A DNA stretch of 64,000 nucleotides, from the NCBI GenBank assembly GCA_016223105.1, contig JACRPR010000083.1:32724-96723 (forward strand), in the 5' to 3' direction. Shown in pieces: positions 1,292-62,503 of the stretch. A program made the position numbers and the translations under genes. Below the pieces are notes generated by a model. The model worked only from the letters and a program-made list of their open reading frames with translations. It searched no databases and had not been told where the DNA came from. How positions within the stretch are numbered: position 1 is the first letter of the stretch; each line of letters begins with the position of its first letter. This DNA comes from Chloroflexota bacterium. GTDB lineage: Bacteria > Chloroflexota > Anaerolineae > UBA4142.

Positions 1292-1391
1292 AATTGGGAA
1301 TTGGAAGTTCGAGATTGGAAGTTGGAATTTGGAAACGTATCGCATCCAACCTCCAATTTCCAACTTCTAACTTCCAACTTCCAACTTCCAA
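1292..1391. repeat. Long imperfect hairpin built from tandem GGAAGTT-like units (left arm) and TTCCAAC-like units (right arm)
   Basis: The left arm aattgggaattggaagttcgagattggaagttggaatttggaa pairs with the right arm tccaacctccaatttccaacttctaacttccaacttccaacttccaa. It fills the SBP-permease intergenic gap. Confidence 0.85.
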
Positions 1392-1394
1392 AAG

Positions 1395-2324
1395 ATGCCT
1401 CGACATTTGGCGCGCCGGCTTGCCGGCACATTGATCACGTTGATCGTCGTCGGGTTCGTCACGTTCGTCGCGCTCGATGCGACGCCGGGCGACGCCGCAA
1501 GCGCGCTCATCGGCGAAAGCGCGTCGCAAGCGCAATTGCAAGTTTTGCGCGCGCAGATGGGACTCGATCAACCACTCGTCGCGCGTTACGCGACGTTTCT
1601 CACAAACCTGGTTTCGCGCGGCAACCTGGGACAATCGCTCGTCAATTCACGCGCGGTCAGTGGCTTGTTGATCGAGCGTTTGCCGTACACGCTGATTCTC
1701 GCGTTCACCGCGACCACGCTCGCGGTTTCGATCGGCTTGACGCTCGGAATGATCGCGGCGACGCGCGCGGGTTCACGGCTCGACACCGCGTTGATGAGCG
1801 GCGCGGCAGTGTCGCTCGCCGTGCCGACATTTTGGAGCGCGCTGGTGTTGCTGTTGATCTTTTCGGTCAACTTGCGTTGGTTGCCGGTTGTCGGCGCGGA
1901 ATCGCCGCGCCATTTTATTTTGCCGGTGATCACGCTCGCGTTGCCGACCTCCGCGATCATCGCGCGAATGATCCGCGCGAGTCTGCTCGATGTGTTCGGC
2001 GCGGATTACGTTCGCACCGCGCATGCGAAAGGCGTCGCGCCGCGCCCGGTGTTGACGCGCCACATTTTACGCAACAGTTTGATCCCGGTGGTTACGATGC
2101 TCGGTTTGCATCTCGGTCATCTCTTGGGCGGCGCGTTTATCGTCGAAACGATTTTCGGATTGCCGGGGCTGGGACGCTTGATCGTGCAAGCGATTTTTGA
2201 TCGCGATGAGCCGGTCGTGCTCGGCGCGACGTTGTTGATCGCGGCGATGTATCTCGCGATCAATTTGCTTGTGGATGTCGCGCATGGCTGGCTCGATCCG
2301 CAAGTCGCGCACGAGGCGGTGTGA
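1395..2324 (+). CDS. ABC transporter permease (DppB/OppB-like)
   Basis: 309 aa, polytopic. It has a typical peptide-permease core (SLLDVFGADYVRTAHAKG...) and lies in an operon with the SBP. Confidence 0.85.
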   Translation: MPRHLARRLAGTLITLIVVGFVTFVALDATPGDAASALIGESASQAQLQVLRAQMGLDQPLVARYATFLTNLVSRGNLGQSLVNSRAVSGLLIERLPYTLILAFTATTLAVSIGLTLGMIAATRAGSRLDTALMSGAAVSLAVPTFWSALVLLLIFSVNLRWLPVVGAESPRHFILPVITLALPTSAIIARMIRASLLDVFGADYVRTAHAKGVAPRPVLTRHILRNSLIPVVTMLGLHLGHLLGGAFIVETIFGLPGLGRLIVQAIFDRDEPVVLGATLLIAAMYLAINLLVDVAHGWLDPQVAHEAV

Positions 2325-3241
2325 TGTTGGTGGAAGTTGGAGGTTGGAAATTGGAAATTGGAAATTGGATTCAACGCTTTAGCGGGTTGCGTATTTTTGA
2401 AAAACCGCGTAAACTCGCGAATCCAATTTCAACAAATTTGTGGATCGGCGGCACAATTTTGATCGCGATTTTTTTTGCCGCGATCTTTGCGCCTCTGCTC
2501 GCGCCGCATCCGCCCGACCTGGTTTTGGCGGGCGCCAAATTGAGCGCGCCGAGTTTCGCGCATCCGTTCGGCACGGACAACCTGGGACGCGATGTGTTGA
2601 GCCGCGTGTTGTTCGGCGCGCGCATCGCGATTGGGATCGCGCTCGTCGGTGTCGCGATTTCGGCGGGACTGGGCATTCCGCTCGGATTGATCGCAGGCTA
2701 TCGCGGCGGCTGGCTCGATCAAGGGATCGCGCGCGCGATGGATGTGTGGCTCGCCTTCCCCGGTTTATTGCTCGCGCTCGTGATCGTCGCGCGTTTGGGA
2801 CCATCGCTCGAAAACACAATCGTCGCGCTCGGCGTAATGACCGCGCCCGGTTTTTTTCGCATCACGCGGAGCGCGACGATTTCCGCGCGACGCGCGATGT
2901 ACGTTCAAGCCGCGCAAGCCGTCGGCGCGAGTGAACTGCGAATTATGGCGCGCCACATTTTGCCGAACCTGGCTTCCGCGTTGATCGTGCTGGCGACTCT
3001 GCGCGCCAGCACAATGGTTCTTGCCGCGGGCGGTTTGAGTTTTATCGGACTCGGCGCGCAACCGCCTCTGCCGGAATGGGGCGCGTTACTTGCGAGTGGA
3101 CGCGGTTATCTCGACACCGCGCCCTGGCTCGCGATTTTTCCCGGCGCGTGCATCACACTCACGAGCGCGGGATTGAATTTGCTCGGTGATGGCTTGCGCG
3201 ATTATTTTGATCCGCAACAAATGAAAAAACCAGGTTTCTAA
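2321..3241 (+). CDS. ABC transporter permease (DppC/OppC-like); true start probably downstream (e.g. TTG 2438)
   Basis: Contains HPFGTDNLGRDVLSRVLFGARIAI and a polytopic core. The first ~40 codons of the listed ORF only translate an intergenic repeat (WKLEIGNW), so the N-terminus is doubtful. Confidence 0.8.
   Translation: MMLVEVGGWKLEIGNWIQRFSGLRIFEKPRKLANPISTNLWIGGTILIAIFFAAIFAPLLAPHPPDLVLAGAKLSAPSFAHPFGTDNLGRDVLSRVLFGARIAIGIALVGVAISAGLGIPLGLIAGYRGGWLDQGIARAMDVWLAFPGLLLALVIVARLGPSLENTIVALGVMTAPGFFRITRSATISARRAMYVQAAQAVGASELRIMARHILPNLASALIVLATLRASTMVLAAGGLSFIGLGAQPPLPEWGALLASGRGYLDTAPWLAIFPGACITLTSAGLNLLGDGLRDYFDPQQMKKPGF
2326..2430. repeat. Composite repeat: a GGAARTT heptamer run followed by a GGATTC..GCTTTAGCGGGTTG palindromic element
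   Basis: The run is ggaagtt ggaggtt ggaaatt ggaaatt ggaaatt. It is followed by ggattcaacgctttagcgggttg...aaccgcgtaaactcgcgaatcc, the same family as 52619-52683 and 55379-55469. Confidence 0.75.
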
Positions 3242-3259
3242 AAGAAACCTGGTTTTTCG
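3225..3259 (+). terminator. Rho-independent terminator candidate
   Basis: A perfect stem (aaaaaccaggtttc / gaaacctggttttt) has a taaaa loop and is followed by a T-run. It overlaps the permease stop codon. Confidence 0.6.
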
Positions 3260-3268
3260 TTATGCGGT

Positions 3269-3296
3269 TTGACGCCACGACAATACGCGTTATAAT
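3269..3296 (+). promoter_or_regulatory. Sigma-70-like promoter candidate (TTGACG-16 nt-TATAAT)
   Basis: The -35 is at 3269-3274 and the -10 at 3291-3296, 18 nt upstream of the ATG at 3314. Confidence 0.45.
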
Positions 3297-3313
3297 CAGG
3301 CGGGGAGAAAAAT

Positions 3314-4690
3314 ATGGGGACTGGGCTCATCGATCATCTGCCGCGCCAACCCCGCACGGTCGCGGAAACCGGGTTGAGTTTAAGTTTGCTCGCCGAACTT
3401 ACGCTCAAAAACATTCATTTTCAAAGTGTCTTGAGCGCGCAAGAAATCGCGGACGCGCTCAAATTGCCGTTGGGGAATGTGATTCGCGAGACGTTGGATC
3501 ATTTACAACGCGAACGCCTGGTGGATCTGCGAGCATCCGAAGGCGCCGCGCCGGTCGCGCGCCTGTACAGCGTTTCGCATATCGGACAACGCCGGATTCG
3601 CGAAATGTTGGATCACAGCCGGTACGTCGGACCTGCGCCGGTGGAACTCGAACAGTACGTCCAAATGGTGCACGCGCAATCGTTCGCGAGCGAAGCCGTC
3701 ACGCCAGCGGCGATCCGCGCCGCGCTCGCGCATCTCGTGCTCAACGACGATATCCTCGCGCACTTGGGTCCCGCAATTACCGGCGGCAAATCGGTTTTTC
3801 TATTTGGCAATACCGGGAATGGCAAAACTTCGATTGGTCTGGGACTGGGCACGTTATTGACCGGCGCGATTTGGATTCCGTACGCGATTGAAGTGCAAGG
3901 GCAAATCATCAAGGTCTTTGATCCGTTGCGGCATCGGATCGTGCCGCAACAAACCGAAAGCGAGAGCGCGATCCTGCGCCGCAAAGGTTTGCTCAATCAA
4001 CTCGCGCGTGGTCAAGTGGAGCTCGAGGCGACGTTCATTCTCCCGGCGAATCAACCGTATGATCAACGCTGGATTCCGATTCGGCGTCCGTTGATTGTCG
4101 GCGGCGGCGAGTTGACGCTGGCGAATCTTGATCTCATCTTTGATCCCGCCACGCGCTATTATGAAGCGCCGCAACAAATGAAAGCGAACGGTGGAATGTT
4201 TCTGCTCGACGACCTGGGACGCCAAGCCGCCGCGCCGCGCGAAATTCTCAATCGGTGGATCGTGCCGCTCGACCGGCGCGTGGATTATTTGCAACTCGCC
4301 TCCGGGCATCGCTTTCAAACGCCGTTCGACGTGGCGGTTGTTTTCGCGACCAATCTCACCCCCAGCGATCTCGTGGAAGAATCGTTTCTGCGGCGCATTC
4401 GTTCCAAACTGTATATTCCCGATCCGACCTGGGATCAGTTTCGCGAGATTTTTATTCACGAGGCGGCGCATCACGGCGTCGCGTACTCGGAGCAAAATTT
4501 ACAGTATTTGATCAGCGAGTACTATCACAAGCCGAACCGCGCGCCGCGCGGCGCGCACCCGCGCGATCTGCTCGACGCGTTAGTGGATATTGCCAAATTC
4601 CAAAACTGCGCGCCGACGATGTCCAAGCCGCTCGTAGACGCGGCGTGTCAATTTTATTTGATGAATGAGCATCCGGCGACGAGCGCGTAA
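3314..4690 (+). CDS. AAA+ family ATPase with an N-terminal winged-helix-like region (function unknown)
   Basis: Walker A is FLFGNTGNGKTS and Walker B-like is MFLLDDLGR. The C-terminal region reads FATNLTPSDLVEESFLRRIRSKLYIPDP. The gene has its own promoter-like and terminator-like flanks. Confidence 0.6.
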   Translation: MGTGLIDHLPRQPRTVAETGLSLSLLAELTLKNIHFQSVLSAQEIADALKLPLGNVIRETLDHLQRERLVDLRASEGAAPVARLYSVSHIGQRRIREMLDHSRYVGPAPVELEQYVQMVHAQSFASEAVTPAAIRAALAHLVLNDDILAHLGPAITGGKSVFLFGNTGNGKTSIGLGLGTLLTGAIWIPYAIEVQGQIIKVFDPLRHRIVPQQTESESAILRRKGLLNQLARGQVELEATFILPANQPYDQRWIPIRRPLIVGGGELTLANLDLIFDPATRYYEAPQQMKANGGMFLLDDLGRQAAAPREILNRWIVPLDRRVDYLQLASGHRFQTPFDVAVVFATNLTPSDLVEESFLRRIRSKLYIPDPTWDQFREIFIHEAAHHGVAYSEQNLQYLISEYYHKPNRAPRGAHPRDLLDALVDIAKFQNCAPTMSKPLVDAACQFYLMNEHPATSA

Positions 4691-4769
4691 AAAATCCGCT
4701 CAAGTCAAACCACAGATTGCACAGATGATTTATTTCTGTGAAATCAGTGTGATCAAGACGAAAAAATAA

Positions 4770-4825
4770 AACGCGGACGAACGCGGAAAAGTTTTCCGCG
4801 TTCGTCCGCGTTTGTCTGCGTCCAA
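4770..4825. repeat. Palindromic element of the CGCGGACAAACGCGGA / TCCGCGTTTGTCCGCGTCCAA family
   Basis: The sequence is aacgcggacgaacgcggaaaagttttccgcgttcgtccgcgtttgtctgcgtccaa. Related copies lie at 28780-28856, 55315-55348 and 55489-55506. Confidence 0.8.
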
Positions 4826-4829
4826 TTAT

Positions 4830-5729
4830 TTACTGCCGCGCTAGAAAAATTTCCACTTGCGCGCGCGTCGGCAACGAAGGTTGCGCGCCGAAACGCGTTA
4901 CGCTCAACGCGCCGACCGCGCAGGCGTACCGCACCGCGCCCGGTAAATCCTCGCCGCGCGCGAGCGCGACAGCCAACCCGCCGTTGAACGCATCGCCGGC
5001 GGCGGTCGTGTCCACCGCTTGCACGCGAAATCCTTCGATCACGCGCGACTCGTCCGGCGTCGCGAGCAACGCGCCGCGCGCGCCGAGCGTCATCACGACC
5101 GCGCGCGCGCCGAGCGCGAGCAAACGCGTCGCGGCGCGGGCGGGATCATCTTCGCCAGTGAGATGCGCGGCTTCGGTTTCGTTCGGCGTGAGCAAAACAT
5201 CGCGATACAATTCGCTCGGCAATTCGCGCGCGGGCGCGGGATTGAGAATGACGCGCGCGTTCGATTGACGCGCGAGATCAATCGCGGCGATCACGGTGTC
5301 GAGCGGAATTTCCAATTGCGCGAGCAAAACATCCGCCGCGCGGATCGCCGGTTCCGCGCGCGCAACATCGGCAGGCGTGAGTGTCGCGTTCGCGCCAGGC
5401 GCGACGCCGATCAAATTTTCCGCGCGCGCGTCCACCATAATCAACGCGACGCCGGACGCGGCGCGTTCATCGCGCGTGAGGTACGCGCAATCAATTCCGG
5501 CGGCGCGATAATTTTGCTCCGCCTGATCGCCCATCCAATCGCGACCGAGTCGCGCGACGAACGTAACCTCCGCGCCAAGTCGCGCCGCGGCGACGGCTTG
5601 GTTCGCGCCTTTGCCGCCCGCGGCAATCGCGAACTCGCCGCCGAGAATCGTTTCGCCGGCGCGCGGCAAACGTTCGCATTTCAAAATCATATCGGTATTC
5701 GCGCTACCGACGACGATGATGTTGTTCAT
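4830..5729 (-). CDS. rbsK: Ribokinase
   Basis: VVGSANTDM..GGKGANQAVAAARLG..DTTAAGDAFNGGLAVALA are classic PfkB/ribokinase motifs. Confidence 0.85.
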   Translation of the reverse strand: MNNIIVVGSANTDMILKCERLPRAGETILGGEFAIAAGGKGANQAVAAARLGAEVTFVARLGRDWMGDQAEQNYRAAGIDCAYLTRDERAASGVALIMVDARAENLIGVAPGANATLTPADVARAEPAIRAADVLLAQLEIPLDTVIAAIDLARQSNARVILNPAPARELPSELYRDVLLTPNETEAAHLTGEDDPARAATRLLALGARAVVMTLGARGALLATPDESRVIEGFRVQAVDTTAAGDAFNGGLAVALARGEDLPGAVRYACAVGALSVTRFGAQPSLPTRAQVEIFLARQ

Positions 5730-7875: not shown

Positions 7876-10754
7876 CACGCGACTCCGCGCGCGGCAACGC
7901 GCGTTTTGTAGATGTACCCTAACGCAACCAACGCGAGCGCGATCAACAACCATTCGTGCGGTTCCGGCACCGCGGTTACATCGAGCGCGTTTTGTCCAAG
8001 CGTCTCGCCCACCTGTTCCACTTCGCGATCAAAGCGATCACCCTGTTGCTCAAGTTGTTTCAACAATTGGAGTTGTTGCGCGTTAACCAGGACGAGCATC
8101 GAAGAGAATGGCGTTACGATGCTGTGCTTGATCGCGATCGCGTGCAATTGATCGAGCGTCGTCAGCTGGCGCAGGTTGGCGCGATTGCGATACATCGCGT
8201 CGAGGATCACGCGGCGCGCGGCGAACGGCGCGAAATCATCATTCGTGATCGCACTTGACGATTTCACCCCGGAGGACGCGCCGGTGATCGTGAACCACGC
8301 GTAACCGTCCACCCAATCCACCGTCGCGTTTGCCGGGATGTCGCTCGACGCGATCGCTTTCGCGTTCAACGCGACCGCGACGCGATTGAGCGCGTCCTCG
8401 ACACTCGTCGTTACGCCGCCGCCACTCGCTTGAATCGCTTCGAGCGTCGCGTCATCGTAACCGAGCGGCAACGCGCCGCCGAGATGAATCATCCACACCG
8501 GCGCGTTCGGAATCGGCACCTTGACCGGACTCTCGCCGAGTTCGTAACCCGATCCATCGGTTACGACAAAAATCGCGTCGTACGAATCGTTCGCGCGCAA
8601 CGCGTCGAATTGCGCGAGCAGTTCGCCCGCGTGTTGTCCGCCGAGATATTCGATCCGATCCAGGTTGAGCGCATCCAACTTTGCGCGCGATGCTGGCTCG
8701 CCGCGATACTGGGACGCGGTGAGATACACATCCGCGTTGGCGAATTGGTCAAGTCGCGCCACAGTTGTCTTTACATCCGCCGCGAATTTTTGCATACTGA
8801 GCGAACGATCCAACACGACCGCGACGCGCAGATTGTCGCGCAACGCGGGCAGATTCAGCGCGGACAATGGACGCGCGATCACGGTTTCGCCGGTCACAAA
8901 TTCGATCTGATGCGCGACCTGGGTCGGCGGCGAGGTCGCGGGGATAGACGCGGGCAACCACGCGTCGGTTTGCAGTGCTTTGCCATTGAGGACGCGCGTC
9001 GTCGTCGCGTCCCAGTACACATTCCGTTTTTCCGCGAGACGCGGCAATGCCCACGCGTTATCGCGCGCCAGAACGCGATAGGTCAGCCACATGTGCATTC
9101 GCGCGGCGTCGGTGATCGTCGAGCGAAACGCGTTGGGATCGCGTCGAAACAAACGCGGCTCAATCGGAAAAATTCGCAGACGATATTGGCGCGGTCCGAT
9201 TTGCTCGACGAGCGCGGGGTCCACATTGCGGCGCACTTCGTTGCGATACACGGCTTGCGCCGCGCCGCGCGGCGCGACACGATACGCAAAGCGCGCGTTG
9301 CGATCATCGCTCGCGCCGAGCCACACGCCGGTAACGACCGCGGATTCCGGCAGTGAAAAATAGTACACCACTTCCTGGCGTTGCGTCGTTTGATTTTGAT
9401 AGACCTCATGCAATTCAACGTCCGCCCAATCACCGCGCTCGCTGATCGTGATCGCTTGATGCGTCAACAAAATTTCGTGATCATCCACCGCTTGCAGAGC
9501 GGCTTCGGCTTGCGATGCCGACCAGGTCGCGCGCACCGTGTTCGCGATGATTGTGCGCTCGCCGTCGAGGATGCGTTCATCGAACACGGCTTTGTACATT
9601 TTCGCGGCTTGCTCCGGTTCCTGACGTAACGCGCGACCATCTTCGCGATTGTCCGGCTTGGCAGGATTGATCGGTTCGTACAACAACGGACTTGCAACGG
9701 TTTCGTACAACGCTTGCACTTGGAGCGCGTCTGCGAGCGATAATTTCATTGACCACTTGTACATTTCGCCGATGTGTTTCACTTCACCGACCGCGCTGAT
9801 GTACCGGAATTGCGCGAGGTACGTGTTGAGCAATCCCGCGCGCAACGTGTCCGCTTGGCGCATCAGCGCGCGCCCGGCGTCCAATGTCGCGGGCGGAGTT
9901 TGCAAACGCGCGAACGCCTCGCGTTGCGGTTGTTGATTCGCGATGATGACCGCCGTAATCGAAATGAGTATCACCGACGCGACGAGCGCGTACGCGGGCA
10001 CTGCGCGCGTGCGATTGATCAACGCGCGCACGCCGCGCCACCACGCGCGCATCGCGAGAATCGGTACGGCGATTGGAGTGATCGCGAGCAATGTCGCGCT
10101 GTAACCGAACAAGAGACCGCTCAAAATCGAAAATGGCACTGCCCAGGTCAACGTCCAGAGCGCGCGCCAATCGAACGTCGTGATGAATCGCCAGAACGCG
10201 TTCGGCAATTCGATCACCACATTCACGATTTGCGCGGCGAGCGGCACCGCGTAAAACGCGATCCACGCGGAAGCGTACAAATAGGTGAGCAGGAGAAACG
10301 TCAAACCAATCGCGCGCGCCATCGCGAACGGCGCGCCGCGCTCATCAATTTTCGGATCGAGCAGTTGCCACATTAGCGTCGCCATTCCGATCAGCGCGAG
10401 CGTCATAATCAGCGCGACCGCCGGGTTTGCATCGCGAAACAAAAAGAAGCGCAAGCCGAGCATAAACATTAGGGGCCACTCGATGCCGTACGCGAGCGCG
10501 AATAATTTTTCCGGCGCGCGGCGCAGTGGAAAGATCGCGAGAAGGATCGCGGCGACCGGGATCAGCGTCAACGTGATGCCGGCTACGAGAAAGAGCGGCG
10601 GGACGATGTTCGTGGTAACGCCGGCGATCAAATCGGGAAGCATTTGCGGCGCGAATCCCAGGAGCATAAACGCGACAAAGATGAGATTCCACGTCCAGAA
10701 CAATCCGTACGCCCACACGCGCGGATCGAAAATAAATCGCAATACTTGTTTCAT
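7875..10754 (-). CDS. PEP-CTERM integral membrane protein with VIT-like and vWA domains
   Basis: The N-terminal ~340 aa are polytopic. A VIT-like segment follows (VVYYFSLPESAVVTGVWLG...DPALVEQIGPRQYRLRIFPIEP), then a vWA MIDAS motif (VAVVLDRSLSM). The C-terminus reads VPEPHEWLLIALALVALGYIYKTR, i.e. PEP + TM + basic. Confidence 0.75.
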   Translation of the reverse strand: MKQVLRFIFDPRVWAYGLFWTWNLIFVAFMLLGFAPQMLPDLIAGVTTNIVPPLFLVAGITLTLIPVAAILLAIFPLRRAPEKLFALAYGIEWPLMFMLGLRFFLFRDANPAVALIMTLALIGMATLMWQLLDPKIDERGAPFAMARAIGLTFLLLTYLYASAWIAFYAVPLAAQIVNVVIELPNAFWRFITTFDWRALWTLTWAVPFSILSGLLFGYSATLLAITPIAVPILAMRAWWRGVRALINRTRAVPAYALVASVILISITAVIIANQQPQREAFARLQTPPATLDAGRALMRQADTLRAGLLNTYLAQFRYISAVGEVKHIGEMYKWSMKLSLADALQVQALYETVASPLLYEPINPAKPDNREDGRALRQEPEQAAKMYKAVFDERILDGERTIIANTVRATWSASQAEAALQAVDDHEILLTHQAITISERGDWADVELHEVYQNQTTQRQEVVYYFSLPESAVVTGVWLGASDDRNARFAYRVAPRGAAQAVYRNEVRRNVDPALVEQIGPRQYRLRIFPIEPRLFRRDPNAFRSTITDAARMHMWLTYRVLARDNAWALPRLAEKRNVYWDATTTRVLNGKALQTDAWLPASIPATSPPTQVAHQIEFVTGETVIARPLSALNLPALRDNLRVAVVLDRSLSMQKFAADVKTTVARLDQFANADVYLTASQYRGEPASRAKLDALNLDRIEYLGGQHAGELLAQFDALRANDSYDAIFVVTDGSGYELGESPVKVPIPNAPVWMIHLGGALPLGYDDATLEAIQASGGGVTTSVEDALNRVAVALNAKAIASSDIPANATVDWVDGYAWFTITGASSGVKSSSAITNDDFAPFAARRVILDAMYRNRANLRQLTTLDQLHAIAIKHSIVTPFSSMLVLVNAQQLQLLKQLEQQGDRFDREVEQVGETLGQNALDVTAVPEPHEWLLIALALVALGYIYKTRVAARGVA

Positions 10755-10771: not shown

Positions 10772-10865
10772 GTCATTGCGAGGAGCATCGTGAGCGGAGT
10801 CGAACGATACGACGAAGCAATCTCCGATCTGAAAGTGGGGATTGCTTCGCTTTGCTCGCAATGAC
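10772..10865. repeat. MITE-like palindromic element (GTCATTGCGAG...CTCGCAATGAC family)
   Basis: The terminal inverted repeats are gtcattgcgag / ctcgcaatgac, with an internal gaagcaatc...gattgcttc pair. It sits between the exosortase stop and the start of its target gene. Confidence 0.8.
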
Positions 10866-10867
10866 AT

Positions 10868-12370
10868 TCATTTTTTGTTCAGATTGCGCGCAACCGCATC
10901 GCGCACCGCGCGGAAAAATGTTTGCAGTTCCAGCGTGTTCGGATCGCGCGCGTCGTTGAACAAAATCGAAACCAAGACCCAGCGTTTGGGCTGGAGCGTT
11001 ACATCATCCCAAATGCGCGTGCCGTAATCATCGGTTACGCGCTCCGCCGATTGAAACCAGTACGCCGCCGACCAGGTTTGTTGTTTGCGCGCATCGCCGA
11101 GCGCGACGCGAAGAACAGAAAAATCGGGCGCGACGAGAAAGGCGCGCGAGTCATTGATCGCGAGCCCGTACACTTCAAAGCATCGTTCGGGGCGATGATG
11201 CGCGCGCCAGGTCGCGCTCGTAACGAGAATCATCGAGCCGGACAGATCGCGCCAGGTGAAACGAAAGCGGTCGGCGCCTTCAGCATTATCGCGCATCAAC
11301 CAACGCAGTTCGTCCGGCTTGAGCGGCGCGGACTGCGCGATGATGTCGGCGGGAAACGTCCACGCAATTGTCGCCTGCGTCAACCCGGTTTGCGGGCGCG
11401 GCGTGTAGAGTAAACCCATCCCGAAAATTGCAACTATGAGAATCGCGCCAAGCCATGCGGAGTTGGAATTGAGATTGGAGATTGGAGCTTCGAGATTGAG
11501 CGATTGCGTCGGCAAGAGTCGCAACAACGCGACGGCGGCGGCGCACGCGATCACAAATCCCAAGACGCCGAGCGGAACGTGAATCATTTCCGCCGCGAGC
11601 CGCGCGTTCAACACTTGCCCGACGACGACCAGGATCGCGACGCGCGCGAGGTTCGTGATGAAAAGTAAAAGCGCAAACGCGATTGCGATCACGCACCAGC
11701 GCGCGTTGAGTGGTCGTCGTTCGATCCAGGTCGCGGCGATCAGAAACAGCGCGCCCGTCCACAAACTTTTGACGCCACTGCACGGCAGATCAATTTGCGA
11801 CACGCCATTTTCGAGAATCAAAATCGTGTCCACGCCAATCGAACCGATGCCCGCGAGCGCGAGCCCATCGCGCACGATGGACGCGGTGAGGATCCGCATG
11901 GGATAGCCGATGAACGTTTGCATATGTTCGCCGAACGGCAGAACGCCGACGATCAACAGTGCGGCGGGCAAACCCGCGCGCCAACGTTGCGGCGCGATCC
12001 ACAAACCGAGCAAGCCATAACTCGCGAGAAAAAAGATACTCGCGGAAATTGTGTTGATGTCGAGCCAGCGTTCGACGATGAGATACAAAATCGAACCGGC
12101 AAAAACCAGGATGAGCGCGGAGAGATGCCATCGAGGAAGCGCGTCGAATTTAAGCGACCATTTTTCTTTGCGCGCTTGCAACGCGATCAGAACGATCACG
12201 CCGACGAGGACGATTTGATTCGTGCGAAAATCTTCGTACGTGAAAATGATCGCGAGATAGGCGAACACGGCGCGATACAACCACAGCCACAATGCGAGGA
12301 TGAGCGCGTTCGCGGTGATGTGAGTTGCGCGAATCGAATTGGTTGGTGCGGAAGTTTCAAGCATTGCCAT
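10868..12370 (-). CDS. Exosortase fused to a C-terminal EpsI-like domain
   Basis: The polytopic N-terminal part carries an exosortase-type Cys motif (DLPCSGVKSLW). The C-terminal ~170 aa carry an EpsI-like HRPERCFEVYG motif. Confidence 0.75.
   Translation of the reverse strand: MAMLETSAPTNSIRATHITANALILALWLWLYRAVFAYLAIIFTYEDFRTNQIVLVGVIVLIALQARKEKWSLKFDALPRWHLSALILVFAGSILYLIVERWLDINTISASIFFLASYGLLGLWIAPQRWRAGLPAALLIVGVLPFGEHMQTFIGYPMRILTASIVRDGLALAGIGSIGVDTILILENGVSQIDLPCSGVKSLWTGALFLIAATWIERRPLNARWCVIAIAFALLLFITNLARVAILVVVGQVLNARLAAEMIHVPLGVLGFVIACAAAVALLRLLPTQSLNLEAPISNLNSNSAWLGAILIVAIFGMGLLYTPRPQTGLTQATIAWTFPADIIAQSAPLKPDELRWLMRDNAEGADRFRFTWRDLSGSMILVTSATWRAHHRPERCFEVYGLAINDSRAFLVAPDFSVLRVALGDARKQQTWSAAYWFQSAERVTDDYGTRIWDDVTLQPKRWVLVSILFNDARDPNTLELQTFFRAVRDAVARNLNKK
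11459..11500. repeat. AGATTGG-type heptamer run lying inside the exosortase CDS (linker)
   Basis: The run ggagttggaattgagattggagattggagcttcgagattgag is translated on the minus strand as LNLEAPISNLNSNS, between the exosortase and EpsI-like parts. Confidence 0.7.
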
Positions 12371-12812: not shown

Positions 12813-13026
12813 CGTTTGTTCTCCTTCCAAAGTTTCTTGGAGTTGAGAAATCTTGACGCGCTCAAGAATCTGATCCAAGTGAATTGAGCATATCACAAAA
12901 GTTTCAATTTTGTATTAGAGCCAACCCTGCCAAGTATCAATTCTTTATTTGAAAATTCGCGTTGGTTTCGACACGAAAAGTTGTGCGGAAAAAAAGACGG
13001 CAGTCAACTTAATGACTGCCGTTGGA

Positions 13027-13040
13027 TGTGTCGGGGCGAG
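13027..13040. repeat. Degenerate third copy of the tRNA-Pro att core
   Basis: tgtg--tcggggcgag compares with the att core tgtgagtcggggcgag. It lies at the left edge of the low-G+C tract. Confidence 0.3.
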
Positions 13041-13149
13041 CTGATCTGGATTTGATAGTTTGCTGATCATGGTTTGTGAGATATTGAGTTAGCTCCAGTT
13101 GGGACAAATGGACTTGAAGATACCTCACTGGTATTCCTCGATCAAGCAT

Positions 13150-15686: not shown

Positions 15687-15689
15687 AAA

Positions 15690-47391: not shown

Positions 47392-47392
47392 G

Positions 47393-48993: not shown

Positions 48994-48998
48994 GGTTC

Positions 48999-50070: not shown

Positions 50071-50124
50071 CGTGATTCACGCATCACGCCTCACGTTTCA
50101 CCCAATTACAAATAACCAATAACC
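50071..50124. repeat. Tandem CACGCNT / TAACCAA heptamer-like run upstream of GH78
   Basis: cgtgatt cacgcat cacgcct cacgttt caccc aattaca aataacc aataacc. Confidence 0.7.
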
Positions 50125-52611: not shown

Positions 52612-52618
52612 AACAATT

Positions 52619-52683
52619 GGATTCGACGCTTTAGCGGGTTGTTGGTCGAGCAATTCACAACAACCCGCTAAAGCGTCGAGTCC
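52619..52683. repeat. Palindromic element GGATTCGACGCTTTAGCGGGTTG...CAACCCGCTAAAGCGTCGAGTCC
   Basis: Near-perfect 27-bp arms immediately after the GH78 stop. Confidence 0.85.
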
Positions 52684-52721
52684 GGGAAAATTTCCAAAAT
52701 AATTTTCAAAAGGAGGCAACG

Positions 52722-54347
52722 ATGCAAGGTTTGATGATGGACTATCAATTGACGTTGACGCCGCTGATGGAACGCGCGCGGCGACTCTTTCCGAAGAAAG
52801 AGATCGTTACCAAAGCCGGTCCGGGTTTGGAGCGGTACACGTACGCGCAAATGACCGAACGCGTTGCGCGGCTCGCGAACGCGCTCGAAAAGTTGGGCGT
52901 CAAGCGCGGCGATCGCGTCGCGACGTTCGCGTGGAACAATGCGCGCCATCTCGAATTGTATTGGGCAGTGCCGTGTATGGGCGCGGTTCTGCATCCGCTC
53001 AATCTGCGTTTGCCCGGCGATCAACTCGCGTACATCGTCGCGCACGCGGACGATCAAATTTTATTTGTTGACCCATCGCTTTTGCCGGCAGTCGAAAAAC
53101 TCGCGCCGCATTTGAAATCGGTGAAACATTTTGTCGTGATGGGCGACAAGGTTCCCGAAGGCACGACGCTCAGCCCGGTTTCGGCGTACGAAGATTTGTT
53201 GAAAAATGCCAGCCCCGAATATCCGTGGCCCAATTTGCACGAGAACGACGCGGCGGCGATGTGTTACACATCGGGAACGACCGGGAATCCGAAAGGCGTC
53301 GTGTATTCGCATCGCGCGATTTATTTGCACTCGCTCGGGATCAGTATGGGCGATTCGTTTGGCTTGTCGGAACGCGACGCGCTGATGCCGGTCGTGCCAA
53401 TGTTTCATGTGCTCGCGTGGGGCACACCGTTTGCGTGCACAATGCTCGGCGCGAAAATCGTTTTTCCCGGACCGCATCTGCAACCGCGCGATCTCGCGGA
53501 ATTGATCCAAGCCGAAAAAGTTACGCTCACTGCCGGCGTGCCGACCTTGTGGATGGGCTTGCTCCACTTGCTCGAAACCGAACGCTACGATCTGTCGAGT
53601 CTGCGCGGCATGATCGTCGGCGGCGCGGCGGCACCGCGATCGATGATCGAAGCGTACGAGAAGAAACATGGTTTGACCGTGATGCACGCGTGGGGCATGA
53701 CCGAGATGACGCCGCTCGGCACCGTGAGCCGGCTCAAAAGTTATCAACTCGATTTGCCGGAAGCGGAACGCTTTGCGATTCGCGCCAAGCAAGGCACAGC
53801 TGTTCCTGGTGTTGAAATTCGCGCGATGGATGAAAGCGGCAAAGAAATTTCCTGGGACGGTAAAGCGTTCGGCGAATTGCAAGTGCGCGGTCCGTGGATC
53901 GCGAGCAGTTATTACAACGACGAACGTTCCGCCGATTCGTTCAAGGATGGTTGGTTCCGCACCGGCGATGTCGTAACGATTGATTCCGAAGGGTTCATTA
54001 TGATCGTGGATCGATCCAAGGATGTGATCAAGAGCGGCGGCGAATGGATTTCGAGCCAGGATTTGGAAAACGCGATTATGGCGCATCCGCAAGTGTTGGA
54101 AGCCGCGGTGATCGCGGTCGCGCATCCGAAATGGCAAGAGCGACCGCTTGCGTGCGTCGTGCCGAAACCGGATTTCAAAGCGACGCTGACGAAAGAAGAC
54201 ATCCTCAAGCACTTGAGTGCGCGCTTTACCAAGATGTATCTGCCGGACGATGTGGTGTTCATCGAAGCCGTGCCGAAAACGAGCGTCGGCAAGTTCGACA
54301 AAAAAGTTTTGCGCGCGCAGTTCAAAGATTACAAATTACCAGAGTAG
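52722..54347 (+). CDS. Fatty-acid/acyl-CoA ligase (AMP-dependent synthetase)
   Basis: The AMP-binding motif is YTSGTTGNPKGVVYSH, with a downstream GWFRTGD. Confidence 0.85.
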   Translation: MQGLMMDYQLTLTPLMERARRLFPKKEIVTKAGPGLERYTYAQMTERVARLANALEKLGVKRGDRVATFAWNNARHLELYWAVPCMGAVLHPLNLRLPGDQLAYIVAHADDQILFVDPSLLPAVEKLAPHLKSVKHFVVMGDKVPEGTTLSPVSAYEDLLKNASPEYPWPNLHENDAAAMCYTSGTTGNPKGVVYSHRAIYLHSLGISMGDSFGLSERDALMPVVPMFHVLAWGTPFACTMLGAKIVFPGPHLQPRDLAELIQAEKVTLTAGVPTLWMGLLHLLETERYDLSSLRGMIVGGAAAPRSMIEAYEKKHGLTVMHAWGMTEMTPLGTVSRLKSYQLDLPEAERFAIRAKQGTAVPGVEIRAMDESGKEISWDGKAFGELQVRGPWIASSYYNDERSADSFKDGWFRTGDVVTIDSEGFIMIVDRSKDVIKSGGEWISSQDLENAIMAHPQVLEAAVIAVAHPKWQERPLACVVPKPDFKATLTKEDILKHLSARFTKMYLPDDVVFIEAVPKTSVGKFDKKVLRAQFKDYKLPE

Positions 54348-54410
54348 GACAAACGCTTTGCGTAAATTTGTCCCAATGACAATGCCTTTGCCAAACGGTC
54401 AGATACTTTT

Positions 54411-54479
54411 TCCCACTGACGGAAAAGAACACGGACGATCAAAAATATAAAATGTCCGTGTTCCCTTCCGTCAGTGGGA
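54411..54479. repeat. Palindromic element TCCCACTGACGGAAAAGAACACGGAC...
   Basis: Inverted arms around an A/T-rich loop, related to 33401-33460. Confidence 0.7.
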
Positions 54480-54516
54480 AAAACGATTGGGGGCTTGGCG
54501 GGGTATTCGATGCGAG

Positions 54517-54945: not shown

Positions 54946-55313
54946 AACAAGTGATTCGAACAAACGATGCGCCCGCGCCGAAAGGTCCGTACTCGCAAGC
55001 GATTCGCGCGAACGGATTTATTTTCGTCGCGGGGCAAATTCCGATTGACGCGCGCGGCAATCTCGCGCCCGGCGAAATCGAAGATCAAACGCGTGTCGTG
55101 CTGAACAACCTGCGCGCGATTTTGCAATCTGCCGGGAGCGATCTGAACAAGGTCGTCAAAACGACCGTGTTCATCGCCGACCTGGGTTTGTTCGCGCGGA
55201 TGAACGCGGTGTACGCGGAATTTTTCGCGACCGACGCGCCCGCGCGCTCAACCGTCCAGGTTGGCTTGCCGCCGGGAATGTTGCTCGAAATCGAGTGCAT
55301 CGCGACAGAATGA
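54942..55313 (+). CDS. RidA family (YjgF/TdcF) enamine/imine deaminase
   Basis: Contains APAPKGPYSQAI...GFIFVAGQIP...ARSTVQV..LP....EIE. It shows ATGA coupling with the upstream gene. Confidence 0.85.
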   Translation: MKQVIRTNDAPAPKGPYSQAIRANGFIFVAGQIPIDARGNLAPGEIEDQTRVVLNNLRAILQSAGSDLNKVVKTTVFIADLGLFARMNAVYAEFFATDAPARSTVQVGLPPGMLLEIECIATE

Positions 55314-55314
55314 A

Positions 55315-55506
55315 TTGGACGCGGACAAACGCAGATGAACGCGGATAATTTTTTTCACATTGCGGTCTGGCGACACCTGGATTCGACCCCTTCGGCTTCG
55401 CTCAGGGCAATTGGCTTTAGCGGGTTGTTTGTCCGGTCCGCGAAGCGAACCGCGTAAACGCTCGAATCCCAAAGTGCGATCAGTGCCAGCGTTCGTCCGC
55501 GTCCAA
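55315..55506. repeat. Nested repeats: a GGATTCGAC..GCTTTAGCGGGTTG element (55379-55469) inside a split TTGGACGCGGACAAACGC element
   Basis: The left half (55315-55348) and right half (55489-55506) of one family flank a copy of a second family. Confidence 0.7.
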
Positions 55507-55525
55507 ATTTTTCAAGGAGATTTCA

Positions 55526-56491
55526 ATGGCTGATCTACATCGCGACAGCATAATCATTGATGGTTTGAACGCGAGCAATTTTTACGCGCCGCGCGTGTTT
55601 GATCGTTTGCGCGCGGGCGGCGTAACCGCGGCGAACGTAACGCTTGCCGCGTGGCACGATTTACAGGAAACGATGAAGATTATCGCGGACATGCTTCACC
55701 TGATCGAAGCGCGCGACGATCTGATCCAGGTGCGCGACGCGGACGACATTACGCGCGCCAAAGCCGCGAACAAACTTGGGATCATTTTCGGTTTTCAAGA
55801 CACCGCGCCGATTGGCGATAATTTGAAAATGCTCGCGGTGTATCGCGCGCTCGGCGTGCGAATCATTCAGTTGACTTACAATCACACGAACCGGGTCGGG
55901 AGCGGCAACTTGATCCCAGACGATCCCGGCTTGACCCAGTTCGGGCGCAACGTGATCGCGGAGATGAATCGGCTTGGCATCCTGGTTGATCTCTCGCACT
56001 GCGGCGTTCGCACAACCTGGGACGCGATTGAAGCGTCAACTAAACCGGTCGCGTTCACGCACGCGAATCCGTTCGCGCTCTGTCCGCATCCGCGCAACAA
56101 ATCGGACGACGCGCTCAAAGCGGTCGCGGCAAAAGGCGGCGTCGTCGGCGGCGTCGTCTTTGCGCCGATGTTGACCGGCGCGGCAACCGCGACGCTCGAC
56201 GAATACCTGCAACGCGTGGATTATCTCGTCAACTTGATCGGCGTTGATCACGTCGGCATCGGTCCCGATTTTATGGAGGAGATGACCGAGGAAGTTTCGG
56301 CGCGCGCGTTAAGTGGGATGCCGCCCGAGGTCGCCGCGAAATTTCGCGCGGTGCAACCGACCCAGGGTTTTGAATCGATCGCGGCGTGCGCGAATGTTAC
56401 GGCAGGTTTAAGCGCGCGCGGTTATCGCGACGCAGATGTGAAAAAAATTATGGGCGAAAATTGGTTGAGATTGTATCGCGCGGTGTGGTAG
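55526..56491 (+). CDS. Membrane dipeptidase (peptidase M19 family)
   Basis: Contains IIDGLN, VDLSHCG and FTHANP. Confidence 0.85.
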   Translation: MADLHRDSIIIDGLNASNFYAPRVFDRLRAGGVTAANVTLAAWHDLQETMKIIADMLHLIEARDDLIQVRDADDITRAKAANKLGIIFGFQDTAPIGDNLKMLAVYRALGVRIIQLTYNHTNRVGSGNLIPDDPGLTQFGRNVIAEMNRLGILVDLSHCGVRTTWDAIEASTKPVAFTHANPFALCPHPRNKSDDALKAVAAKGGVVGGVVFAPMLTGAATATLDEYLQRVDYLVNLIGVDHVGIGPDFMEEMTEEVSARALSGMPPEVAAKFRAVQPTQGFESIAACANVTAGLSARGYRDADVKKIMGENWLRLYRAVW

Positions 56492-56534
56492 GGCAAATTT
56501 CCAATTTGCCCCGTTCGCAAATTGGAAATTTGCG
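56491..56534. repeat. Double hairpin GGGCAAATTTCCAATTTGCCC / GCAAATTGGAAATTTGC
   Basis: Same family as 60914-60960. Confidence 0.8.
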
Positions 56535-57404
56535 TTACGGCATTCCTTCAATCGCGATCTCGCCGCAATAGACCGGCGAGAGGTTGCCCTGCGCGTCGCG
56601 GTATTGCGCGTGCAGTTTGAACGTTTGCCAATTGATCGCGACGCGCACGGGATAAATTTTTTCAGCAACAAAATTTTCCCAGGGCGCGTCGCTCATTTCT
56701 TCGGGCGTTAAACAACGTCCGACCGGACTAGAATTGACGCGCATCTCTTTGATCGCCGCGCGCGGGCTCGTCGCCTCGAATTTGACTTTGATGTCGAGCG
56801 CGCTTCCGGCTTTGCCGCCGACAATCGGTCGCTCACCCACCTCAATTTTTCCACTGATCGGAAACGCCATGCGCGCGTTCGCAATGATCGTTTGCAACGC
56901 GGGCGGTTGCGCGGCGACCGGCGTGCGCTCATCCAGCGCGCCGGTGATTGGCATCCAATTGCTTGCGCGTTCCGCGAAATTATTTCCCGCCGGAATAATC
57001 CCGCCGCGCGCGTCGCGAAATTGCGCGGTCACGCCGTACTCGCGCAAGCCGATCCAATCCACGTTCACTTGCGCGCGCACAGAATTCGCGAACGGCATCC
57101 ACTGCGCCGGCAAATCACACGCGCGCCCCGCGCCGACGCAGTAACGCATTTCCGCGATGTTGTGATCTTTCCAATCGGTTTCGCTCGTTGCATCCATTTG
57201 TTTGAACGGTCGAAACGCGATCGTGATCGTGATCGAATTACCGATGCCGGTCGTGATCGCGCCCGCGCCACCTTCGCCAAAAATCGCGAGGACGACGTGA
57301 CCTTTGATCACGGTAGTTGGCGATGGCACGGGTGTGGGCGTGAGCGGCGCGGCGCATCCCATCGCGCAAACCAGGATCGCGATCCACAGACTCGGAATTT
57401 TCAT
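56535..57404 (-). CDS. Lipoprotein with two copies of an uncharacterised ~95-aa domain
   Basis: The ATG at 57404 has a GGAGG RBS and the lipobox is VCAMGC. The internal repeat pattern is I.EMR..C...W..F...V.V.W....AQ.RDA.G..P. Confidence 0.5.
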   Translation of the reverse strand: MKIPSLWIAILVCAMGCAAPLTPTPVPSPTTVIKGHVVLAIFGEGGAGAITTGIGNSITITIAFRPFKQMDATSETDWKDHNIAEMRYCVGAGRACDLPAQWMPFANSVRAQVNVDWIGLREYGVTAQFRDARGGIIPAGNNFAERASNWMPITGALDERTPVAAQPPALQTIIANARMAFPISGKIEVGERPIVGGKAGSALDIKVKFEATSPRAAIKEMRVNSSPVGRCLTPEEMSDAPWENFVAEKIYPVRVAINWQTFKLHAQYRDAQGNLSPVYCGEIAIEGMP

Positions 57405-60895: not shown

Positions 60896-60913
60896 TGTGT
60901 CCTCCCAAATGTT

Positions 60914-60960
60914 GGGCAAATTTCTAATTTGCCCCTGAATGGCAAATTGGAAATTTGCCC
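60914..60960. repeat. Double hairpin GGGCAAATTTCTAATTTGCCC / GGCAAATTGGAAATTTGCC
   Basis: Lies between the amidohydrolase stop and the CoA ligase start. Same family as 56491-56534. Confidence 0.8.
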
Positions 60961-61811
60961 TACGCAAAAACTTTTAACGCGGTGTCGCGCAAAATTTTTC
61001 GTTGCGCTTGATCAGAAATCGGAAGCGTTTTGAATTTTTCAATGTTCGCGCCAATGTCTTTGACAAACGGTCCGGGCCAATCCGATCCAAACATCGTTTG
61101 GTCCGCGATCTGTTCGAGGCGCGGAAAATATTCCAACAGGTTTTGCGGCGGGATGTTGGAAATTTCGAGAAAGACATTTTTGCTCCGCCGCACGAGAAAG
61201 AATGCTTCGTCCATCCAGAGCGGACGACCGCCATGCGCGAGGATTATACGCAGTTTCGGAAAATCTACAATTAAATCGTCCGCGTAAATCGGTTGCGCGT
61301 ATTTGTTGCGCGCGCGCGGAAACACCGACGTGCCGGTGTGAATCATCACCGGCAAACCCAGGTCTTGCGCGCGTTCGTACAGTTTGGCTTGTTGCGGCAA
61401 ATTGTCGCGATATTGATTCGGGTAAATTAATTGATGCGCGGGATGCACCTTGAGCAATTTGATGCCCAGGTTTGCGAGCCGTTCCACTTCCGCCGCGCAA
61501 TCTTGTGTGAAGCGCGGATGCACCGAGCCGCACGCGATCAAACGATCGGGCGCGGCTTGCACATAGCGCGCGACCCAGTCGTTTGTCTCCGCGGTAAAGC
61601 CCATCACGTCCGGCGCGACGTAATTGATCAGCACCGCTTTTTCGACGCCGACACGATCGAGGTACGCGAGCAGTTTTGCCGGGTCGCGCATCATCGCGAC
61701 CACCTCGTCGAAATTCGCGAGATGCGCGCCGAACGCTTTGAATGTTTCCGGGTTCAACATTTCGAGCGGTTGGATGTGGATGTGAACGTCAATGGCAAGG
61801 TAATTGTTCAT
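60960..61811 (-). CDS. Amidohydrolase-2 family metal-dependent hydrolase
   Basis: Has an N-terminal IDVHIHI and a TIM-barrel hydrolase pattern. Confidence 0.8.
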   Translation of the reverse strand: MNNYLAIDVHIHIQPLEMLNPETFKAFGAHLANFDEVVAMMRDPAKLLAYLDRVGVEKAVLINYVAPDVMGFTAETNDWVARYVQAAPDRLIACGSVHPRFTQDCAAEVERLANLGIKLLKVHPAHQLIYPNQYRDNLPQQAKLYERAQDLGLPVMIHTGTSVFPRARNKYAQPIYADDLIVDFPKLRIILAHGGRPLWMDEAFFLVRRSKNVFLEISNIPPQNLLEYFPRLEQIADQTMFGSDWPGPFVKDIGANIEKFKTLPISDQAQRKILRDTALKVFA

Positions 61812-61846
61812 AGATGATCCAAGACCCTAAAGGTTTTCAAAAACCT

Positions 61847-62422
61847 TTAGGGTCTGCGCGCGGCTTGCGCCTGGCGCACAATGTCCGCGAGTTGATTGAG
61901 ATGATCGTTGTCGTGTTTCAAGCCGAACACAAAACGCGTGATCGCGTTGAGCGGTTCGAAACCAGGACGGCTCTCGTACGCGTTTTGCAAATCCGGTTTT
62001 GGGGGCCATGCATCGAGCAGTGCCAATCTCATTCGCCGCGATTCTTCCAACCGTTCGCGACATTGCGCGATGGTTGTGATCGTATCCCAGGGAATTTCGT
62101 ACCGCGACCGTCCGCCGCGATGCGGCACGCCACGCGCGAGTTCGGCGGCGATGAACGCGGATTCTTCCGCGGACGCGGTAACGTGGGCGATGACGTGTCC
62201 CAGCGTCCACGCGAGATGCACCAGGTCGGGATCGTCGGCGAATGAATCGTACGCGTTCGCGTCTTTGGGGACGAACGTAACATCCTCATCCGCGCAGTTC
62301 GCGATCAGGTTTTGCATCGTGTCAAGCATTTCGTTTGTGAGCGCGCGCAAATCATTCGGCGTAAGATTCTCCGTGAGTTGGCGCATCTTGATGCCTTTGC
62401 CGAGCGCAGTGAAATCGAGCAT
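61847..62422 (-). CDS. DinB-family protein
   Basis: The ATG at 62422 has an AAGGAG RBS. It shows a four-helix DinB His pattern (HVIAH..., HDNDHLNQL). The listed N-terminal extension only translates a repeat. Confidence 0.7.
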   Translation of the reverse strand: MLDFTALGKGIKMRQLTENLTPNDLRALTNEMLDTMQNLIANCADEDVTFVPKDANAYDSFADDPDLVHLAWTLGHVIAHVTASAEESAFIAAELARGVPHRGGRSRYEIPWDTITTIAQCRERLEESRRMRLALLDAWPPKPDLQNAYESRPGFEPLNAITRFVFGLKHDNDHLNQLADIVRQAQAARRP

Positions 62423-62432
62423 AGTCTCCTTG

Positions 62433-62503
62433 ATGTTGGAAGTTGGATGTTGGAAATTGGAAAGTGGAATCCAACATCCAACTTCTAACTTCCAACTTCC
62501 AAC
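62433..62503. repeat. Hairpin of GGAAGTT/AACTTCC units (same family as 1292-1391)
   Basis: atgttggaagttggatgttggaaattggaaagtggaatccaacatccaacttctaacttccaacttccaac. Confidence 0.85.

Follow-up and report, generated by a model that had tools for sequence, protein, structure and literature searches.

Dispersed small palindromic repeats and short-unit arrays in the intergenic spacers of an Anaerolineae-like genome

What fills the gaps between genes in a 64-kb stretch of contig JACRPR010000083.1 (the window), taken from an Anaerolineae-like genome, and by which route did it come to be there? A first-pass annotation of this DNA had described the gaps as saturated with hairpins and tandem runs of short, mostly heptameric units. 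The question was followed up on these 64 kb of the source genome together with about 70 kb from relatives (contigs given L numbers). The elements are probably dispersed families of palindromic repeats with slippage-prone tandem arrays as arms, a reading held with moderate confidence, and confidence in what the elements do is lower than confidence in what they are. The spacers appear to be almost wholly occupied by several small families of this kind that co-exist in the genome. About half of the elements would be periodic palindromes, that is, inverted pairs (sometimes single runs) of arrays of 7-10-nucleotide (nt) units, and the rest would resemble either GTAG-tagged repetitive extragenic palindromes (REPs) and their hairpin-forming doublets (REPINs) or transposable elements of the miniature inverted-repeat type (MITEs).

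Arrays and hairpins in the intergenic gaps

Every locus listed in the annotation is present, at the coordinates it gave or a few bases off. At a score of at least 40, Tandem Repeats Finder (TRF) reported 34 non-redundant arrays in the window, nine of them with a period of 7 or 14, against 3.3 +/- 1.7 arrays, and none of period 7, in each of 30 dinucleotide-preserving shuffles. The period-7/14 arrays span 1290-1335, 1345-1391, 2331-2369, 38266-38303, 42211-42262 and 62432-62503, and weaker arrays lie at 38219-38266, 47393-47458 (period 9), 48962-48988 and 50076-50125. Coding DNA holds most of the arrays with periods divisible by three, as expected.

Ten elements are long hairpins, with fold z scores of -4.4 to -11.9 against shuffles on both strands; loci in that range include 1288-1392, 25308-25441, 38212-38266, 47393-47466, 48918-48998, 56489-56536, 60912-60962 and 62431-62505. 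Among 30 host intergenic gaps, z falls below -3 in 18 and below -4 in 15; the corresponding counts for 90 length-matched coding segments are 2 and 1. Read by eye, about 14 of the 30 gaps contain short-unit arrays, about 8 other palindromic repeats, three plain terminator-like hairpins (12430, 31200 and 59235) and three nothing notable. The earlier statement that almost every gap is occupied is right for hairpins of all kinds and too broad for short-unit arrays. The geometry of long inverted-array hairpins is likewise real, except that 2326-2370, 42202-42261 and 50071-50124 are essentially one-armed direct runs (z 0 to -3). As for composition, arms of which one lacks C and the other lacks G are seen for GGAAGTT, TTTCCCT, TTACCAN, TAACCAA, AACTATCC and in part GAAGGG, and not for GCGTGAT, GTTCACT, CGAATAA and ACGCGGAC. 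Further elements, absent from the annotation, were found at 4768-4826, 11459-11498, 24567-24601, 28780-28858, 33400-33462, 37215-37250, 43453-43480, 46302-46334, 52612-52690, 54343-54486 and 55310-55510.

Could such hairpins have been produced by collapsed or chimeric low-complexity reads? Short-read contigs do stop at them: L008, a short-read contig from an independent Logan assembly (SRR12113407), runs from the GGAAGTT hairpin (right arm) to the ACGCGGAC hairpin, and since it ends inside hairpins on both sides, the repeats fragment short-read assemblies of the lineage. However, L008 is 99.94% identical to window positions 1362-4786, including the array at 2326-2425, one relative shows identical hairpins in four independent metagenome assemblies, and orthologous hairpins are found in five further contigs. 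As independent assemblies give the same sequences, the hairpins are not artefacts, and the chance that assembly made them is negligible.

Elements like those of the window are also carried by relatives L002, L003, L004, L005 and L009, whereas the unrelated controls L006 and L007 have none, and L001 has one 10-nt array. The repeats are thus a trait of the host lineage, as had been proposed. Scans of genomes and metagenomes with the aldolase/dehydrogenase protein returned one unrelated alphaproteobacterial locus, and one 4.6-kb relative with two unrelated loci. Scans of viral contigs were uninformative, with three unrelated single direct arrays for GGAAGTT x3 and no match for the ACGCGGAC terminus.

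Dispersal, nesting and unit-wise change

Every element was compared by blastn-short with the window and the relatives. The unit sequence had been thought to differ from locus to locus; instead, most units recur in the window or at non-orthologous loci of L009, whose permease is 88% identical in protein sequence to that of the window. The repeats are multi-copy families at the DNA level, common to related species, some of them nested and some present in one relative and absent from another.

The GGAAGTT unit is found at three loci in the window. The periodic hairpin at 1290-1391 has about 7 heptamers in each arm (1290-1337 and 1343-1391; TRF; z -8.8/-8.3) and takes up the gap that separates an SBP_bac_5 gene (stop codon TAG at 1288-1290) from a permease gene (ATG at 1395). 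At 2326-2370, at a permease/permease junction, the unit forms a plus-strand direct array with no good partner arm (TRF; z 0.3), and at 62432-62505, between two minus-strand genes, a hairpin with about 5 units per arm (z -8.6/-9.9). By-eye reading adds a relative of this unit, GGAGATT x6, at 11459-11498 (plus strand; TRF), in frame in an exosortase open reading frame (ORF) just past the EpsH domain; this array is not among the blastn-short matches of GGAAGTT.

The hairpin of 10-mer units ACGCGGACNA, of the ACGCGGAC family, has three copies with defined termini, TTGGACGCGGAC...GTCCGCGTCCAA. The copy at 4768-4826 has a perfect 22-bp stem (z -6.9/-8.2) and lies in a convergent gap, just downstream of a degenerate TTCCCAC-like hairpin at 4715-4765; the copy at 28780-28858 (z -10.3) has the termini TTGGGACGCGGAC...GTCCGCGTCCAA; the third, at 55310-55510, is in two parts (55310-55345 and 55487-55510) split by a GGATTC-family element at 55376-55470. 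Even composites recur. A GCGTGAT/ATCACGC hairpin (38217-38272) followed by a direct run of TTACCAN x5 makes up 38212-38303 (TRF; z -7.5/-6.2), between SBP_bac_1 and permease genes and overlapping the SBP stop codon, and a second composite of GCGTGAT and (T)TAACCA at 50066-50135 (plus strand; TRF) lies in a divergent gap and runs into the start codon of a rhamnosidase gene (50125). The GTTCACT unit forms a direct array of 6-7 copies with a vestigial left arm at 42202-42262 (plus strand; TRF), beginning at the fucosidase stop codon, and a hairpin at a non-orthologous locus of L009. The palindrome CGCGTCAACGAA..AACGAATAAACGAATG of the CGAATAA locus (48918-48998; z -11.9/-10.1), in a convergent gap and overlapping the kinase stop codon, also has near-identical arms at a non-orthologous L009 locus (97% over 38 nt). 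Families have copies at two to four loci in 64 kb, in addition to those in L009, which by extrapolation implies many copies genome-wide.

Nesting and differences in presence accompany this dispersal. The GGATTC element GGATTCRACGCTTTAGCGGGTTG...GAATCC at 2366-2425 lies within the GGAAGTT array, where the window carries it as a clean insertion of 48 nt compared with L009. Its family has loci at 2366, 52612 and 55376; the stand-alone copy is a GGATTCGACGCTTTAGCGGGTTG...GAGTCC hairpin (52612-52690; z -8.6), and another GGATTC copy splits the loop of a ACGCGGAC hairpin. Conversely, L009 has a 145-nt insertion with a TTCCAC-type hairpin where the window has none, and in one further gap the window and L009 carry strongly diverged copies of the same element.

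At orthologous sites, change in the arrays comes in unit-sized steps, with homogenisation of the units inside each array. The GGAAGTT hairpin at the binding-protein/permease junction numbers about 7 units in each arm in the window, as against about 4 in L009, with outer and inner units alignable; L013, a 75% relative, has no gap at this junction. The GGTAAAT/ACCAATC mini-hairpin at 43453-43480 has about 3 and 1 units in its two arms, compared with about 4 and 3 in the longer version of L005. The annotation had suggested looking for turnover of unit sequences in sister genomes, and it is found in the gap between the fucosidase and the next gene, where three relatives have CACTGTT (period 7), TACTTGTC (period 8, left arm) and TGACACGG (period 8, hairpin). 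The period-9 hairpin TTTCCCTNA is kept in three genomes: it occupies the orthologous aldolase/kinase gap in the window (47390-47466, between the aldolase/dehydrogenase and FGGY kinase genes; z -5.0/-4.8) and in L003, and it follows the orthologous aldolase gene in L004. An AAATCTG x4.7 array (46302-46334; plus strand; TRF) lies within the aldolase/dehydrogenase gene, where it encodes an in-frame 11-residue insertion, LKSEIQNLKSI, that is absent from the Thermoflexus and Parageobacillus homologues. In the coding array, three genomes have GAAATCN throughout and a fourth has GCAATTC throughout; every unit being alike within a genome, concerted evolution is indicated.

Origin and possible function

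Unit-sized change would result from replication slippage, and the families would spread as selfish or near-neutral DNA. The GTAG families would be moved by a hairpin-recognising transposase of the RAYT (REP-associated tyrosine transposase)/IS200-605 type, the periodic families by some other route, and copies would persist wherever a transcribed stem-loop is tolerated. An effect on mRNA is likely secondary. In operons that place a hairpin between a binding-protein gene and a permease gene, the elements would probably act like Escherichia coli REPs, as barriers to 3'-exonucleases or partial terminators that set relative expression, again as a secondary effect.

Several observations weigh against this account. 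No change of unit number was seen among strains at 99.2-99.4% identity; the gain and loss of units between orthologues speak for slippage, and the lack of unit polymorphism at 99.3% identity means that slippage is slow and not directly demonstrated. No transposase of any kind was found in the host part of the window, and since element boundaries fall in repetitive flanks, no target-site duplication can be assigned. Genome-wide copy numbers are extrapolated from 64 kb and about 70 kb of relatives. The two arms of a hairpin keep similar lengths, a balance that selfish spread alone does not explain and that hints at selection or arm-to-arm copying. Some units, moreover, occupy a single locus of the window (plus orthologues), namely GGTAAAT (43453), TTTCCCT, GAAGGG and AACTATCC, so that an origin in situ is possible for them. 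Two of these are found at 25309-25441, where a GAAGGG/CCCTTC hairpin with purine and pyrimidine arms (z -4.4/-5.0) fills a co-directional gap and begins at the upstream gene's stop codon, and at 24567-24601, where AACTATCC x4.4 is a plus-strand direct array without a hairpin (TRF) between a tRNA (24456-24528) and a HAD hydrolase gene. As regards mRNA punctuation, no T-tract was seen after the periodic hairpins. In addition, when the left arm was aligned to the reverse complement of the right arm in 15 hairpins of the window and relatives (a small sample), 22 sense-compatible and 20 antisense-only G.U transitions were counted, with 30 transversions.

A genesis in situ for all of the elements, by local slippage and intrastrand template switching in an error-prone replication or repair background, with locus-specific units and no dispersal, is rather unlikely. 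It would fit the single-locus units, the changes of unit number in both arms between relatives, the drift and homogenisation of units at orthologous sites, and the perfect adjacent copies at one arm end of the 1290 hairpin (CTTCCAA x3, 1371-1391). Yet the same units, and even two-module composites, recur at unrelated loci, near-identical CGAATAA and GTTCACT elements stand at non-orthologous loci of another species, the ACGCGGAC family has defined termini, and there are nested insertions and differences in presence and absence. It is quite improbable that the periodic palindromes are instead a distinct self-propagating class made by a lineage-specific process (for example, nicking at stop-codon-like tags and then hairpin-templated copying) rather than slippage-prone simple sequence repeats (SSRs) superimposed on REP-like biology. 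If such a process existed, it would build units, balance arms, disperse the product and write in-frame repeat insertions into proteins.

Might selection on RNA account for the hairpins, with transcribed stem-loops serving as terminators without U-tracts or as 3'-end stabilisers and repeats being the easiest mutational route to a long stem? We regard this as possible, if doubtful. Position speaks for it, as do balanced arms and the persistence of a hairpin at orthologous gaps despite sequence drift. Indeed, the elements occupy mostly co-directional or convergent gaps, where nearly all of them begin 0-5 nt past the upstream stop codon or overlap it; stop codons read from the sequence at or overlapping elements are 1288-1290, 25441-25443, 38295-38297, 42205-42207, 47389-47391 and 48938-48940. 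The order binding-protein gene, hairpin, permease gene is found at 1290, at 38212 and in L009, a placement like that of REPs in malE-malF, and in L013 a GTAG palindrome marks another binding-protein gene junction. Against it, arrays are also found in a divergent gap (50066) and in coding sequence, and the sense strand is not favoured by fold energies; with no bias in either wobble pairs or fold energy, nothing in these data marks strand-specific selection on RNA. Between 44 and 64 kb, a terminator scan gave 43 sites against 41 expected and listed, among periodic hairpins, only the CGAATAA element; T-rich tails do follow hairpins of the ACGCGGAC family and the plain ones at 12430, 31200 and 59235. 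With neither T-tracts nor an excess of terminators, the canonical intrinsic terminator role that had been suggested is not supported. Rfam matches comprised a tRNA only, the rest being sub-threshold matches to miRNA hairpins. Position nevertheless makes a REP-like role in operons plausible. Imperfect palindromes directly downstream of ORFs, varying in sequence by locus, could also recall integron attC-like recombination sites, one after each gene cassette. This is highly improbable, given that the flanking genes are syntenic metabolic operons conserved in relatives rather than cassettes, gene orientation is mixed, no intI was found and the only integrase lies in a low-G+C island, and the elements form recurring families of tandem-unit or REP-like type. 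CRISPR-like arrays (short palindromic repeats in clusters with regular spacing) were considered and rejected, with no dedicated test run.

The elements reach into coding sequence at several points. Positions 2324-2440 form an open frame continuous with an OppC-like permease, and in L009 the array is in the same frame and lacks the 48-nt insert; the array at 2326-2370 is possibly translated as the N-terminus of this permease. The ACGCGGAC hairpin at 28780-28858 overlaps the 5' end of the minus-strand ORF 27457-28962 (NHL/PQQ-like beta-propeller). In a frame read by eye, an ATG in the loop of this hairpin begins MNAERKIKIRVRPRLSASQLVLFLLVAC, a plausible lipoprotein signal peptide, so that part of the coding sequence may come from the repeat, unless the gene in fact starts further downstream. 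More generally, gene callers extend ORFs into elements (for example at 2321, 28806, 50125 and 62518), and several arrays are read as protein.

Relation to known repeat systems

The repeats belong to known kinds: inverted heptanucleotide arrays as in Xanthomonas, the short tandemly repeated repetitive (STRR) sequences of cyanobacteria, and REPs/REPINs. Xanthomonas has about 185 GGGAATC arrays, 70-75 pairs of which lie close together on opposite strands (PMC4692102). Those arrays show a strong bias towards stop codons, and their length varies by species while their type, single or inverted pair, is preserved (Rehm et al. 2015, PMC4692102). The elements described here are likewise dispersed intergenic heptamers at or over stop codons, with opposite-strand pairs able to form stem-loops (1290-1391, 25309-25441, 47390-47466 and 62432-62505 in the window; 9923-9996 and 20163-20234 in L009; 9325-9408 in L002), and array length differs between related species without a change of type. 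The annotation had held that the inverted arrangement sets these repeats apart; as inverted heptamer arrays beside stop codons are already described in Xanthomonas (PMC4692102), the arrangement is not new. However, Xanthomonas has one G-rich, quadruplex-forming unit family, whereas many unit families co-exist in this genome and most are unable to form G-quadruplexes: GGAAGTT, GTTCACT, TTACCAN and TTTCCCT have no run of three Gs, and only GAAGGG has GGG. Further differences are the unit lengths of 7-10 nt, the REP- and MITE-like elements that occur alongside the arrays and are nested with them, and the phylum.

STRRs of heterocystous cyanobacteria have only a few consensus units (CCCCAGT, TTGGTCA and CAACAGT). 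The resemblance to STRRs that the annotation had pointed out is real in that tandem heptanucleotides are dispersed in non-coding DNA: period-7/14 TRF arrays start at 1290, 1345, 2331, 11459, 38266, 42215, 62432 and 62470, and other families have periods of 8-10. A heptamer-built hairpin stem is likewise known from Nostoc, where the P6b stem of the trnL intron consists of TDNGATT or NNTGAGT motifs with 7-/14-nt indels on both sides of the stem (PMC4476775). Unlike STRRs, the present arrays have a non-cyanobacterial host and unrelated units (no STRR-type unit is in the TRF list of the window), and most are paired into palindromes that fill whole gaps. Within the same phylum, Chloroflexus aurantiacus has heptamer-derived (GATAGRA)n satellites (PMC6749651). 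These are direct repeats of one unit, whereas palindromic pairing and multiple unit families, not reported there, are found here. Among long SSRs of bacteria, heptanucleotide units are the commonest class, according to the summary of Mrazek 2007 in PMC4679880.

GTAG-tagged REPs have been reported in Chloroflexi (PMC3733652). Like REPs and REPINs (PMC3733652, PMC3116915), some elements of the window are small imperfect palindromes with a GTAG tag at one end, arranged in inverted doublets, between co-directional or convergent genes, downstream of ORFs and with occasional copies in genes. Unlike them, the periodic hairpins are untagged and have much longer, tandem-unit stems, so that only the GGGCAAATTTCC and GGRCAAACGC families fit.

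The elements therefore form no new category, as the same architecture is documented in Xanthomonas and partly in Nostoc. What is distinctive is that so many unit families co-exist, that they nest with REP- and MITE-like elements and that they occupy the intergenic space almost completely. The repeats are a compact natural system in which to study the origin, arm balance and spread of tandem-unit hairpins, and could show whether hairpins punctuate operons in a phylum whose terminators and mRNA decay have barely been studied.

Four elements of the window combine a GTAG tag with a short imperfect palindrome: 37218, 54344, 56488 (GTAGGGCAAATTTCC...) and 60963 (reverse complement). The palindrome GTAGGGCAAACGCTTCGCGTAAATTTGCC at 37215-37250 (z -4.5) shares its family, GTAGGRCAAACGCTTYGCGTAAATTTGYCC, with 54343-54378, which is followed by a TTCCCAC-family hairpin at 54400-54486 (54343-54486 together; z -8.1). 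The two others belong to the GGCAAATTTCCAATTTGCC family and are inverted doublets that form a larger, REPIN-like hairpin, at 56488-56538 (z -6.0; tag overlapping the stop codon of an M19 peptidase gene) and 60911-60963 (z -7.8; tag overlapping the stop codon of an amidohydrolase gene). They had been listed as a tandem-unit element, GGGCAAATTTCCAATTTGCCC (56489 and 60912), which they are not. No RAYT (IS200/IS605-type) transposase was found among the window ORFs scanned with Pfam. The stop codon of the upstream gene coincides with the TAG or TAA of the tag in all four GTAG palindromes, which suggests that the elements insert at stop codons or capture them.

The MITE-like hairpin TTCCCAC..GAACACGGA..GTGGGAA, assigned by blastn-short and by the fold of its gap, is found at 33400-33462 and again at 54400, with two L009 matches (about 4640, and 13420-13483); a related TTTCCAC..GTGGAAA copy was read from the sequence at L009 11840-11915. 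When L009 at 13483 is compared with L010-L012 (about 99.3% identical over about 14 kb), the sole indel in a repeat element is a 20-nt deletion between GGAAATTTT direct repeats, placed where the TTCCCAC element meets the ACGCGGAC hairpin.

L013 has no heptamer arrays in 21 kb and does have two related elements: at 5640-5691 a CGCGGATGAACGCGGA hairpin apparently akin to the ACGCGGAC family, and at 645-715 a GTAGGGGCGAGCC..GGCTCGCCCC palindrome after a binding-protein gene. As REP-like elements are thus present without heptamer arrays, the REP-like families may predate the periodic ones. The window also has four copies of a separate hairpin element, GTCATTGCGAGCG..GAAGCAATCTCC..GGAGATTGCTTC..GCTCGCAATGAC (10772-10866, 40055-40100, 50931-50960 and 63041-63117), presumably a motif widespread across phyla. 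The MoCoBD (molybdopterin-binding) ORF 62485-63990 contains one full copy and stays open, a partial copy lies inside the rhamnosidase ORF, and a related copy is found at L013 8280-8393.

As to the setting, the G+C content of the window is about 57%, except for a tract of 47-50% at roughly 12.4-24.5 kb, one of its proteins is 100% identical to a protein from a Chloroflexi metagenome-assembled genome, and others are 75-88% identical to proteins of Anaerolineae/Chloroflexi metagenome-assembled genomes and metagenome contigs. The host genes are ordinary ones and include two ABC transporter operons, a fucose/rhamnose utilisation cluster, dehydrogenases, acyl-CoA ligases and an exosortase. The low-G+C tract had been called a prophage devoid of the repeats. 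It does lack them, in that none of the 13 arrays with periods not divisible by three lies there, and the prophage label is not borne out: no structural phage genes were identified in the island (about 12900-24450), which adjoins the minus-strand tRNA at 24456-24528. Since it carries, beside a tRNA, genes for a tyrosine integrase (14427-15308), for a rolling-circle replication protein of the Rep_1 family (20203-21282) and for an HNH endonuclease (23659-24054), it is an integrated mobile element, plasmid-like or phage-like in appearance.

A smaller insertion may lie elsewhere. In L003 the FGGY kinase gene is followed by 24 nt holding a GTAG palindrome (5136-5159) and then by the rhamnosidase gene, whereas the window has an extra 1.2 kb at 48941-50124, with two minus-strand ORFs, one of them a DUF6036/AbiEii-like nucleotidyltransferase (49460-49984). 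This segment has the CGAATAA palindrome on one side and the GCGTGAT/TAACCA composite on the other, and so may represent the insertion of a toxin-antitoxin-like module with repeats at its borders.

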